Shown piece after piece: positions 28,518 through 35,265 of a stretch of DNA of 64,000 bases. The position numbers and the translations under genes are program-made. The DNA comes from a virus, in IMG/VR virus record IMGVR_UViG_3300037606_000137, positions 32,001-96,000 of that record; one strand, 5' to 3'. The notes below the pieces were generated by a model. The model searched no databases and was not told the origin of the DNA. It saw only the letters and a program-made list of their open reading frames with translations. Each line of letters starts with the position of its first letter. Positions within the stretch are counted from its first letter, which is position 1.

Positions 28518-28901
28518 ATGCAAAAAAATGTTAGTGTTGTATTGATTAACGAGCACGGTAACGTGTTATGTGTTTCAAGAAAAGATAATCATTTAGATTT
28601 TGGAATGCCTGCTGGAAAAGTTGATGATACTGATTTAAATGAATTGGAAGCAGCTCATCGTGAAGTAAAAGAAGAAACCGGATTAGATATAAATAATTTA
28701 AGATTGATTTATGCTAATTGTGAAAATGAATCTATGGGATATACATATTTAGCAGATTATTCAGGTGTAATTGAGTTTAACGAACCACATGTTGTTAAAT
28801 GGGGTTCATTTAAAGATTTAATTGCTGGAACTTTCAGTAAATGGAATGAAAATGTATACAATTCATTAATTGAAATGAAAATTAATGTAAATATTAAATA
28901 A
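28518..28901 (+). CDS. Nudix hydrolase
   Basis: AGKVD...EAAHREVKEETGL. Confidence 0.9.
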   Translation: MQKNVSVVLINEHGNVLCVSRKDNHLDFGMPAGKVDDTDLNELEAAHREVKEETGLDINNLRLIYANCENESMGYTYLADYSGVIEFNEPHVVKWGSFKDLIAGTFSKWNENVYNSLIEMKINVNIK

Positions 28902-28966
28902 AATATTTTTTATTCAAAAAGTTTAGTATATTTGTCGAGTATAAATTAAATAAATTAAAATATAAT

Positions 28967-32477: not shown

Positions 32478-32544
32478 ACTTAATTGTTTTTATTCTGTAT
32501 AATAATTCTAAATAACAAAAATAAAAAGAATTAAAATTATTATT

Positions 32545-32715
32545 ATGGACAAGAATCAAATTTTTACAGAATTAGAAACATTATGGGAAGCATTTAAAGC
32601 AGAACATGAATCAACAAAGAAAATTGCAGGTGGTAGAGCTAGAAAAGCAATTGGTGAAATGAAAAAATTAGTTACACCTTACCGTCAAGCATCTGTTGAA
32701 GCAGGAAAATTATAA
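32545..32715 (+). CDS. Histone H1-like (Hc1-family) small protein, 56 aa, absent from the ORF track
   Basis: KKIAGGRARKAIGEMKKLVTPYRQASVE resembles the Bacteroidota Hc1-like motif. Confidence 0.7.
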   Translation: MDKNQIFTELETLWEAFKAEHESTKKIAGGRARKAIGEMKKLVTPYRQASVEAGKL

Positions 32716-32811
32716 AAAATAAATAAAAATTTTTATATATCAAAATAAATTCTTATATTTGTTTTGTAAAAGTAAAAAGGGAAGAAAAAAAATTAATATA
32801 TACAATTAAGA

Positions 32812-32904
32812 ATGAAAAATTTATCAAACATATTAGTGGATCGTTATTATGATCGTGAACCGGAGAGATTACTTGGGACTAACAATGTTATGTGTAAATT
32901 TTAA
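32812..32904 (+). CDS. Putative attenuator leader peptide MKNLSNILVDRYYDREPERLLGTNNVMCKF
   Basis: Lies between promoter motifs (32754-32761, 32794-32802) and the terminator; contains GGGACT complementary to the terminator 5' arm. Confidence 0.65.
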   Translation: MKNLSNILVDRYYDREPERLLGTNNVMCKF

Positions 32905-32941
32905 TTATTAAAAAGATATTAAATTTTTAAACAAATAACTG

Positions 32942-32971
32942 AAAAGTCCCTTAGCAATAAGGGACTTTTTT
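32942..32971 (+). terminator. Intrinsic terminator (attenuator) 14 nt before tRNA-Glu
   Basis: AAAAGTCCCTTA-GCAA-TAAGGGACTTTTTT. Confidence 0.85.
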
Positions 32972-32985
32972 ATTTTAAATCATAT

Positions 32986-33057
32986 GCTCCTATCGTCTAA
33001 CGGTCAGGACTCTACCTTTTCAAGGTAGCAATGAGAGTTCGATTCTCTCTGGGAGTA
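32986..33057 (+). tRNA. tRNA-Glu(TTC)
   Basis: Cloverleaf; CTACC-TTTTCAA-GGTAG. Confidence 0.92.
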
Positions 33058-33139
33058 CAAAAAATAAATTGTAGTGTACAATAGGTGAAATTTGTATATG
33101 AATGGTAAGACAGCTCGAGACTGTATTTATTTTTTTTAA

Positions 33140-33219
33140 CTAGATGCTTGAGCAGTTGGTTGAACTCGCCTGTTTTGGGAACAGGAGCATTTGCGTAGGT
33201 TCGAATCCTACCATCTAGA
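33140..33219 (+). tRNA. tRNA-Pro(TGG)
   Basis: CTAGATG/CATCTAG acceptor; CCTGT-TTTGGGA-ACAGG. Confidence 0.88.
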
Positions 33220-33415
33220 CATAAATTATTGATAACAAACAAGTTACAATAAAAAATATATTTACTAGTAATGTTTAGTAAATTAAAGATAATAGTTGGA
33301 TAATGAAAATATGAGCTGTAACTTGTATAATAGTAATTATAAGCTAGAATATAGAAATGATATAATATTTAAGTATTATTACAGTAAGAAAGAATTAAAT
33401 TGAATTGAAGTATTT

Positions 33416-33490
33416 TTTATGTGTGGTGTAATTGGATAGGCACGCTTGCGTTGAGTGAGTAGATTATTGGTTCGAATCCAATACATGAAA
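33416..33490 (+). ncRNA. tRNA-like RNA with 5-nt anticodon loop
   Basis: GTGT..GCAC D arm, CTTGC-GTTGA-GTGAG, ATTGG-TTCGAAT-CCAAT. Confidence 0.6.
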
Positions 33491-33500
33491 CAAAAAATAA

Positions 33501-33571
33501 GGTCCATTGGTGAAATGGTATCATGACTCACTGTCTATGAGTTGTCGTCGGATCGTAACCGGCATGGACCG
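33501..33571 (+). tRNA. tRNA-Asp(GTC), atypical T loop
   Basis: ACTCA-CTGTCTA-TGAGT; G73. Confidence 0.85.
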
Positions 33572-33597
33572 CTAAAGAAACAAAAATAATAAAATAA

Positions 33598-33670
33598 GGT
33601 CCTGTAGCACAATTGGTAGTGTAACTTGTTGTCTGCGAGATGGTTGACGGTTCGAATCCGTTCAGGACCG
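33598..33670 (+). tRNA. tRNA-Asp(GTC), second copy
   Basis: GGTCCTG/CAGGACC-G; loop TTGTCTG. Confidence 0.8.
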
Positions 33671-33736
33671 CAATAAACTGAGTTAGTGTACTACAAGTTC
33701 GAAACTTGTGATCTTGACAAAAAAAAATTAAAAAAG

Positions 33737-33826
33737 ATGAAAAAAATAATAGTAAATAAAAATGTAATGATAAGTGTAAGAAATATTTCTTATTCATATT
33801 ATTATAACTTATTGAAATCTCAATGA
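33737..33826 (+). CDS. Putative Tyr-rich attenuator leader peptide MKKIIVNKNVMISVRNISYSYYYNLLKSQ
   Basis: Four TAT codons at 33791-33805; the stop overlaps an antiterminator segment. Confidence 0.7.
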   Translation: MKKIIVNKNVMISVRNISYSYYYNLLKSQ

Positions 33827-33853
33827 GACTGAAATTGTATTTTAACAAATTTT

Positions 33854-33886
33854 AAGTCCTATTGAGAAATCAGTAGGACTTTTTTT
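33854..33886 (+). terminator. Intrinsic terminator (attenuator) immediately before tRNA-Tyr
   Basis: AAGTCCTATTGA-GAAA-TCAGTAGGACTTTTTTT. Confidence 0.85.
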
Positions 33887-33890
33887 ATAA

Positions 33891-34565
33891 CCGACAGTAT
33901 GCAAGTGGTTAAAGCAGGGGGATTGTAAATCCTGTTACAGTCAATTCGAATTTAATATATAAAGATAAAAAACTATATATGTGTGATTTGAAAAAATGTG
34001 AAAATTGTGATAACGATCATAATGGTGATTATGGAAGTGGAAGATTCTGTTCGAATAAATGTGCTAGAGGATTCTCAACCAAAAATAAACGAAAAGAAAT
34101 AAATAAAAAAGTAAGTAATACATTACAGTTAAAATTAAATAATGGATTAACAACACAACAAGTAATACAAAAAAAATATGCAGCTAAACACGCTTCTTAT
34201 ATTAGAGAAACTGAAATAACTACATTATATGATTTAAGTACACGTACAATAAGTAAAATATTAAAAAGATTAAAATTACCATGTTCATTATGTAAATGGT
34301 ATGTTGAAGATGTTGTTGGTGATTTACATCATATAATAGAAAGAAAAAATGGTGGTTCAAACAATCATGATAATTTAACATATGTATGTCCTAATTGTCA
34401 TAGATTAATTCATTCTAATAAAATAGATAATAGTAAAATAATAAATCTTAAAGATTATATTGGTGACGAATGGAAAAAATATTATTATGTAATCAATAAA
34501 AAATTAATAAACAAATAATTTGTTCTCTTCGGAGTTCGTAAGTTCAAATCTTACCTGTCGGACCA
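33891..34565 (+). tRNA. tRNA-Tyr(GTA) split by an insertion (5' part 33891-33936, 3' part 34525-34565 with encoded CCA)
   Basis: CCGACAG pairs with CTGTCGG-ACCA; loop TTGTAAA; CTC-TTCG-GAG variable arm; GTAAG-TTCAAAT-CTTAC. Confidence 0.85.
33979..34518 (+). CDS. HNH endonuclease inserted in tRNA-Tyr
   Basis: C..C..GSGRFCSNKCA; DLHHII....GGSN...NLTYVCPNCHRLIH. Confidence 0.88.
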   Translation: MCDLKKCENCDNDHNGDYGSGRFCSNKCARGFSTKNKRKEINKKVSNTLQLKLNNGLTTQQVIQKKYAAKHASYIRETEITTLYDLSTRTISKILKRLKLPCSLCKWYVEDVVGDLHHIIERKNGGSNNHDNLTYVCPNCHRLIHSNKIDNSKIINLKDYIGDEWKKYYYVINKKLINK

Positions 34566-34731
34566 CAACAATTTTAAGTTGTACTTCTAATTTTATTAAA
34601 TTAAAACATAAATATGTTGATGTATTTTTGTTTTAATTTTTTTGTTTATATAATTGTATTCATAACAATTTAAACAAAGTTAAACAATTCATATATAATA
34701 CTATAGAAAATATAGTAAATATAGTAAAGCT

Positions 34732-35265
34732 ATGGGAACAATAAAAGATTATATACAAGAAAGAATAACATTAAATCATTTACCTTTAAATATTAATGAA
34801 TGTTTAGCTGTTATAGAAACATATGAAACAATATATTCTAATGTTTCAGAGAAAGAACGTTTTTTTTTATTTATCAAAAATAAAGTTGGAGAAATACTAA
34901 CAAATATTGATGAAGATTTGTCTGAAATTTTAGGATGGTTACATGTACATAAAAGTAAACAAGATATAGTTTATTTTTTATTTGAAACCGAAGAAGATTA
35001 TTATAATTGGTTAAGTGTTCGTAAAGATTTATATTTACAATTAAATGAAGATTACACAAGATTATTAAATTTTTTAGAATTATCGACTATGGATTTCATT
35101 TCTGATATAACTACTAATTGTAATTATATCTTAGAATTAAAAAATAAAAAAACAGATTTTAAAAAAGAAGGATATGGTGTTGATGTTGAATCAACAATAT
35201 CATTCATTAAATACTTAGGTGCATCATTTAAAAAAGGATATAACTTTAAACCAACAAAAATATGA
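34732..35265 (+). CDS. Hypothetical protein
   Basis: ORF with a TAAAC-N18-TATAAT promoter. Confidence 0.6.
   Translation: MGTIKDYIQERITLNHLPLNINECLAVIETYETIYSNVSEKERFFLFIKNKVGEILTNIDEDLSEILGWLHVHKSKQDIVYFLFETEEDYYNWLSVRKDLYLQLNEDYTRLLNFLELSTMDFISDITTNCNYILELKNKKTDFKKEGYGVDVESTISFIKYLGASFKKGYNFKPTKI

Follow-up and report, generated by a model that had tools for sequence, protein, structure and literature searches.

A probable ribosome-mediated attenuator in front of a split phage tRNA-Tyr gene

In the trpL, hisL, pheL, leuL, thrL and ilvL leaders of enterobacteria, a short frame with a run of sensor codons is combined with RNA segments that can pair as helices 1:2, 2:3 or 3:4, an intrinsic terminator lies just before the regulated gene, and a ribosome that finishes the frame masks the antiterminator strand while it stands at the stop. 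In Escherichia coli the pheM leader of the pheST operon places phenylalanyl-tRNA synthetase under attenuation control by cognate codons. Here we describe a locus of similar design in front of a viral transfer RNA (tRNA) gene. In the window, a stretch of 64,000 nucleotides (nt) representing bases 32001–96000 of the virus record IMGVR_UViG_3300037606_000137 (110,380 bp, about 28% complete), positions 33737–33886 are probably a ribosome-mediated (leader-peptide) transcription attenuator that senses the decoding speed of Tyr codons and gates a tRNA-Tyr locus. Ribosome-mediated attenuation is a known mechanism; what would be new here is the tRNA product and the viral carrier.

What phages gain from tRNA genes is a question of decades' standing, with codon compensation and escape from tRNA-cleaving defences as the two main answers (PMC10264068, PMC11555353). 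Phage tRNAs have been described as counter-defence (PMC10264068), and in T5-like phages a tRNA-Tyr is used to escape the retron-Eco7 PtuAB system (PMC11555353). We found no description of tRNA genes under leader-peptide or attenuator control in the full-text literature searched, most subscription journals lying outside it. The virus itself is a giant Lak-like phage. With tRNAs set aside, all of its DNA matches in the phage collection are to Prevotella Lak megaphages, and its G+C content is 20–29% in 2-kb windows, mostly 20–26%.

A putative leader frame and alternative RNA folds ahead of tRNA-Tyr

The element opens with a frame of 29 amino acids on the plus strand (33737–33826; all positions are those of the window unless stated otherwise), which is the ATG-initiated part of the longer open frame 33686–33826 and runs from an ATG at 33737 to a TGA at 33824–33826. 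It contains the putative sensor codons Y-S-Y-Y-Y (TAT TCA TAT TAT TAT, 33791–33805), read by the anticodon GTA, and on checking against the sequence both the frame and the codon run lie exactly where the initial annotation had placed them. Runs of at least four Tyr in five residues occur in 2 of the 717 short ATG frames of the record (15–60 amino acids, six frames, 110 kb), this leader being one of the two, and the chance probability of the run under a composition model is 0.0008–0.0024. The run sits ahead of the sole tRNA-Tyr gene of the 110-kb record. The phage uses the standard genetic code: a recoded code was considered and rejected, as reading TGA or TAG as sense hardly extends the long frames, and the TGA at 33824 is therefore a true stop. 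Shine-Dalgarno (SD) sites are present at 2 of 99 phage genes, a background level, and the real genes start in an A-rich context. The start of the Tyr leader is likewise A-rich, unstructured and devoid of an SD site, and an SD test of the frame is uninformative, since the real genes of the phage lack such sites too.

Within and behind the frame, the RNA offers alternative pairings. An imperfect long hairpin of 44 nt (33763–33806, –12.7 kcal/mol), whose 3' arm is the Tyr-codon run itself, is possibly a pause or protector helix that is melted by the ribosome. It is followed by hairpin 1:2 (33808–33827, –6.9 kcal/mol), a diverged copy of the terminator hairpin, in which segment 1 (33808–33815) pairs with segment 2 (33820–33827). 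In its extended form segment 2 is the predicted antiterminator strand (33818–33830); it spans the TGA stop and can pair with 33855–33867, the 5' arm of the terminator, matching at 11 of 13 positions, in keeping with the near-complementarity given in the initial annotation. The intrinsic terminator 3:4 (33854–33886, –16.4 kcal/mol) has a 12-bp stem (33854–33881), a GAAA loop and a run of seven T (33880–33886), and the tetranucleotide ATAA is all that separates the end of this T-run from tRNA position 1 at 33891, so the distance of 4 nt that had been reported is accurate.

The complementarity between upstream RNA and terminator is far in excess of what composition would give. Paired with the 5' arm of the terminator, the upstream RNA reaches –13.8 kcal/mol as against –4.9 ± 1.45 in dinucleotide shuffles, none of 2000 shuffles being as strong; the 221-nt spacer as a whole folds with z = –5.9; and this terminator ranks first among the 32 terminators predicted in the genome for complementarity to upstream RNA. 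In context the antiterminator 2:3 (–15.7) and the terminator 3:4 (–16.4) are nearly equal in predicted energy, as expected if the choice between the two helices is kinetic. Folding with a ribosome mask gives opposite outcomes at the two critical positions: with the A site on the YYY codons, segment 1 is covered and 2:3 forms on the nascent RNA (–15.7), while one standing at the stop hides segment 2, and the terminator (–16.4) is the only helix left. The free full-length RNA folds as 1:2 plus terminator. All three pairings are therefore available to the RNA, and the comparison with trp/his-type attenuators drawn in the initial annotation holds, as far as computation goes, in each of its parts, namely a frame, cognate codons, a terminator, and a mutually exclusive antiterminator placed at the stop. 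No T-box (RF00230) or other Rfam family was found in the spacer in a search of 32500–35000 with E values up to 10.

The position of promoter-like motifs places the leader inside a larger transcription unit. Two such motifs stand ahead of many genes of the phage: TATATTTG is of the Bacteroidota –7 promoter type TAnnTTTG and has 44 copies in 110 kb, often 20–50 nt before an ATG, and AATATATA often comes directly after a terminator T-run, 4–30 nt before an ATG. On the plus strand between 32700 and 33953, the pair at 32754–32802 (TATATTTG at 32754 and AATATATA at 32795) are the sole TAnnTTTG or AATATATA motifs ahead of a further AATATATA at 33954, inside the tRNA-Tyr gene. From 32803 to 33953 on that strand we found no TAnnTTTG, no AATATATA and no sigma-70-like site, these being the three motif classes tested, and an independent promoter downstream of the terminator, which would have undercut the proposal, was likewise not found among them. 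The Tyr leader would therefore be transcribed from the operon promoter at 32754–32802, behind the first attenuator and five tRNA-type genes, as a nested second gate.

In the proposed mechanism, transcription would enter from the operon promoter near 32754–32802 and pass a first, multi-amino-acid attenuator and the Glu, Pro and Asp tRNAs on its way to the Tyr leader. A ribosome that translates the leader fast would reach the stop and cover segment 2 (33818–33830), or hairpin 1:2 would re-form after its release; in either event terminator 3:4 would fold and RNA polymerase would stop at the T-run, 4 nt before tRNA-Tyr. Were charged tRNA-Tyr scarce, the ribosome would stall on the YYY codons (33797–33805) and cover segment 1, leaving segment 2 free to pair with the emerging 5' arm of the terminator, and polymerase would continue into tRNA-Tyr and the HNH gene within it. 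Without translation, hairpins 1:2 and 3:4 would both form and the gate would be off. We infer from the anatomy of the locus that the leader frame is translated, that stalling occurs on it, that read-through responds to stalling, and that there is a physiological trigger. Destruction of the host's tRNA-Tyr by a defence nuclease would be a plausible trigger in view of published cases (PMC11555353, PMC10264068), yet it is conjecture, and simple codon-demand homeostasis fits equally well.

Codon-matched leaders in this genome and in other phages

The Tyr unit has siblings. Each of the three tRNA blocks of the record that follow a gap has a strong terminator 4–15 nt upstream. For upstream complementarity these three terminators rank 1, 2 and 5 of the 32 (hypergeometric P about 0.002), and all three blocks are also preceded by a short ATG frame that spells out amino acids served by the tRNAs behind it. 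One of the siblings is the operon-level leader at the head of the same operon, a frame of 30 amino acids (32812–32904, plus strand) with the patch D-R-Y-Y-D-R-E-P-E-R at 32839–32868, in which 7 of 10 residues fall within the downstream tRNA set (Glu, Pro, Asp, Asp, Tyr; P 0.003–0.013). The intrinsic terminator behind it (32941–32976, plus strand) ends its T-run 9 nt and its stem 15 nt before tRNA-Glu, and its complementarity to its own upstream RNA has z = –2.3, which is rank 5 of 32. Arg is the sole residue of the patch that lacks a partner, with three Arg codons (CGT, CGT, AGA) and no recognisable tRNA-Arg in the operon.

The other sibling lies outside the window on the minus strand (locus L094, 1104–1181), where residues 2–16 of the frame consist of K, N, F, H and W alone, a run with P < 5e-6, and where the frame and its terminator are followed by tRNAs for Trp (Trp-like, CCA), Asn, Phe, His, Lys and Lys. 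Both of these operon-level leaders have TATATTTG and AATATATA ahead of them. The Trp-like tRNA (genome positions 28848–28921, minus strand; L094 950–1022) has an anticodon loop of 8 nt, and ARAGORN assigns it the four-base anticodon ccaa.

Leaders of the same kind appear in other phages. These loci are from metagenomes, were fetched through the HNH protein rather than through any leader, and were scanned for terminators at most 60 nt upstream of a tRNA. The clearest case is L017 (1255–1347), in which residues 2–18 are all drawn from P, Q, Y, G, T and K, exactly the set of its tRNA cluster, and for which a near-consensus promoter and the terminator were confirmed. The leader of L041 has a matched run of 13 residues (P 7e-5) and that of L087 one of seven (P 1.5e-3), and the leader of L025 matches its cluster weakly. 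A permutation of leaders among clusters was run on all 12 units from the pipeline, with the non-significant ones (L027, L049/L050, L063/L064, L075 and L043) kept in, and gave a score of 94.2 against 37.5 ± 8.5 (P about 5e-6); the leader's own cluster scores best for 8 of the 12, including the Tyr leader (rank 1 of 12). In each of the seven good units, the strand that can pair with the terminator is located in the frame tail or at the stop. Covariation of leader codons with the identity of the downstream tRNA, one of the patterns by which the initial annotation proposed to judge the idea, is hence seen in both siblings of the Tyr unit and again in independent phages. No close relative of the virus was found in viral contigs searched by exact tRNA-half patterns and by two neighbouring proteins.

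The surrounding operon and the split tRNA-Tyr gene

The tRNA-Tyr(GTA) gene does start at 33891 on the plus strand, directly behind the terminator as first annotated, but 33891–33936, which had been taken for the gene, is its 5' part only: acceptor strand, a 3-bp D stem and the anticodon arm, up to a TGTT repeat. The gene is split at the junction of anticodon stem and variable arm by a cassette of 589–594 nt with the TGTT repeat at its bounds, and the 3' part, at about 34521–34565, consists of TGTT, a UUCG-capped variable arm, the T arm, the acceptor strand, an A and CCA. The 5' part alone (33891–33936) is not called by default ARAGORN or by Rfam, and the whole gene (33891–34565) is called by ARAGORN with a 594-nt insert when introns are allowed. 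Joined in silico, the halves make a canonical class II tRNA-Tyr with 7 of 7 acceptor-stem pairs and an encoded CCA. Besides its long variable arm, this tRNA has C1:G72 as first pair (acceptor strands 33891–33897 and 34555–34561), where the tRNA-Tyr genes of Lak phages carry G1:C72.

The inserted cassette (33954–34518, plus strand) comprises the AATATATA motif at 33954 and an open reading frame (ORF) for an HNH endonuclease at 33979–34518 (PF01844, E 2e-07), which fills 540 of the about 590 nt. Homing endonuclease genes of the free-standing HNH type adjoin the genes that they target, and bacterial tRNA genes can contain group I introns, which to our knowledge lie in the anticodon loop. A group I intron in tRNA-Tyr was considered and rejected: the insert (33934–34522) gave no match to a group I or II intron or any other ribozyme in Rfam at E values up to 10, and the insertion comes after the anticodon stem, not in the anticodon loop. 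The HNH ORF is homologous over its full length to free-standing HNH genes. Because homologues directly adjoin intact tRNA-Tyr genes elsewhere, in Lak-A, Lak-B and Lak-C, the insert is best read as a homing endonuclease cassette of the free-standing type that landed inside tRNA-Tyr. Among the 91 fetched loci, 35 have a tRNA-Tyr gene at most 150 nt from the HNH gene (16 upstream, 18 downstream, 1 on both sides). In L017 a tRNA-Tyr flanks the HNH gene on each side, and in L025 (2393–3125) a tRNA-Tyr 5' fragment is followed by an HNH gene, a tRNA-Tyr-like gene in full and then the 3' fragment that matches the first. On these genomic associations the family qualifies as a tRNA-associated homing endonuclease. 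In many other loci a tRNA-Leu gene is equally close to the HNH gene; the loci concerned in these associations are L001–L003, L015–L030 and L041–L091. The 110 kb contain no match to RtcB, an archaeal splicing endonuclease, an RNA ligase or tyrosyl-tRNA synthetase, which says little given that they are about 28% of the genome.

Upstream of the Tyr leader, the tRNA block (32986–33671, plus strand) holds Glu (32986–33058), Pro (33140–33220), a tRNA-like element (33416–33491) and two Asp genes (33501–33572 and 33598–33671), and downstream the operon is closed by a terminator at 34599–34643 on the same strand. Rfam supports the Glu, Pro and both Asp tRNAs of the block and not the element at 33416–33491, which ARAGORN calls tRNA-Gln(ttg) and for which Rfam has no tRNA match; a Gln codon is absent from the patch of the operon-level leader in spite of that call. 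The T arm of this element resembles that of an element in Lak-C1 (L002, about 3520–3575). Directly after the second tRNA-Asp, a hairpin at 33692–33710 is shaped like a tRNA T arm, with a 5-bp stem and a TTCGAAA loop, to which a TTCGAAT motif at 33946–33952, in the insert, is similar; both may be remnants of tRNA genes. Elsewhere in the window, ARAGORN reports a minus-strand tRNA with a two-base anticodon (aa) at 2115–2186.

Weighing the attenuator against other readings

Several observations weigh against a working attenuator. Four Tyr codons by themselves reach a P of only about 0.001–0.003. Between tRNA-Pro and the tRNA-like element, the same operon has another Tyr-rich short frame (33296–33403, with 6 Tyr in its last 30 residues, including YYY) and no terminator behind it; this may be a decayed leader or just noise of AT-rich sequence. 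On free RNA ending at 33868, helix 2:3 already wins thermodynamically without a ribosome, and an off state in which no ribosome stalls would therefore require 1:2 to form earlier, a matter of kinetics; hairpin 1:2, for its part, could be no more than a degenerate tandem duplicate of the terminator. Because it lacks a promoter motif of its own, the leader must be translated from the tRNA-precursor transcript. The support from other loci comes from analogous units rather than orthologous ones, no close relative having been found. Finally, the gated tRNA-Tyr is interrupted by the HNH cassette, with no ribozyme match in it and no RNA ligase or splicing endonuclease found in the 110 kb, and the gene behind the gate may by now be dead.

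The last point leads to the rival we take most seriously, though we think it somewhat doubtful: that the element is a true attenuator and now a relic, the HNH cassette having killed tRNA-Tyr, and that the gate is useless or merely adds read-through transcripts of the HNH gene. The make-up of the insert speaks for this, as it is a promoter-like motif plus an ORF like those of free-standing HNH genes, leaves no room for a ribozyme, matches nothing in Rfam and is bounded by the TGTT repeat; so do the intact tRNA-Tyr genes that neighbour the family in Lak phages, its proximity to tRNA-Tyr in the 35 of 91 loci, and the tRNA-Tyr fragments around such a gene in L025. Both tRNA halves are nevertheless undamaged and join to a canonical tRNA, and leader, terminator and pairing are all intact, a state that fits a recent insertion and continued function equally. 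Chance is an unlikely explanation in our judgement. It would make the leader a random frame before the ordinary terminator of the upstream tRNA transcript, with 33808–33827 a decaying duplicate, the Tyr run a product of AT-richness, and tRNA-Tyr expressed by leaky read-through or not at all. TAT is common at such low G+C, the window has 19 runs of at least four Tyr in five codons over its six frames, the neighbouring Tyr-rich frame has no terminator, and the evident homology of hairpin 1:2 with the terminator is what a duplication would produce; left unexplained are the codon-matched frames at all three terminator-preceded tRNA blocks, the terminator ranks for upstream complementarity, the recurrence of the design in independent phages and the rarity of such a Tyr run among short frames. 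A variant in which a noise frame and an ordinary terminator are joined by a promoter overlapping the T-run was dropped in view of the terminator ranks, the codon-matched frames, the permutation result and the lack of a promoter motif.

It is very improbable that the stretch encodes a small protein or small RNA as a separate gene, with a terminator of its own and no part in tRNA control, or that it is a switch operated by a protein or, in the manner of a T-box, by a tRNA. Small stable RNAs are frequent in the tRNA regions of phages, and the spacer is highly structured, as such readings would have it; against them, the Tyr leader frame has no promoter-like motif upstream, its peptide has no Pfam match, no Rfam family including T-box was found at the E values searched, and a switch independent of the ribosome would not need in-frame codon runs matched to tRNA identity. 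Attenuation thus remains our preferred reading. A more elaborate version of it is a long shot: a two-tier circuit in which the operon leader would sense slow decoding of Asp, Tyr, Glu and Pro and the nested leader that of Tyr only, evolved as hosts attack tRNA-Tyr (compare retron-Eco7 PtuAB in E. coli), with the split tRNA-Tyr matured without a self-splicing ribozyme.

If attenuation of tRNA genes is borne out, the phage would gauge decoding speed codon by codon and top up only those tRNAs that are in short supply, which would close a feedback loop around the translation apparatus. The textbook attenuation of trp and his would then also cover a new class of product, viruses, and translation without SD sites, probably of the Bacteroidota type. 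A practical rule would also follow, in that a leader sequence would predict both the tRNAs of one transcription unit and the amino acids that the phage expects to be limiting. Within this scheme the Tyr instance would be a single-amino-acid gate nested in a multi-amino-acid operon, with a homing endonuclease gene inserted in the gene that it controls.

Comparison with known systems brings out what is shared and what is particular. As in free-standing HNH genes and their targets, the family of the cassette adjoins tRNA-Tyr genes in Lak and many metagenome phages, but here the cassette lies within the tRNA body, at the junction of anticodon stem and variable arm. In T5-like phages too a phage supply of tRNA-Tyr matters when that of the host is destroyed; there it is made from a strong promoter and no sensing element has been described (PMC11555353), whereas here it is apparently conditional on slow Tyr decoding. 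The T-box riboswitch shares a terminator/antiterminator switch that answers to the state of one tRNA species, yet it needs no translation, its specifier codon and T-box sequence binding uncharged tRNA directly, while the sensor codons of the phage are in an open frame. With the enterobacterial leaders the Tyr unit has in common, as observed or as predicted, the short frame with its sensor-codon run, the three alternative helices, the terminator just before the regulated gene and the masking of the antiterminator strand by a ribosome at the stop, and those siblings whose frames draw on several amino acids resemble the multivalent thr and ilv leaders. It has no sequence homology to any known leader, and differs in that its product is a tRNA itself instead of enzymes of amino-acid biosynthesis, that it is viral, and that it is nested in a tRNA operon behind a first attenuator and without SD sites. 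Closest in logic is pheM, where a cognate-codon leader likewise raises the supply of the charged tRNA that it senses, a negative feedback; pheM does so through a synthetase in a cellular operon, and the Tyr unit would do so through a tRNA gene.

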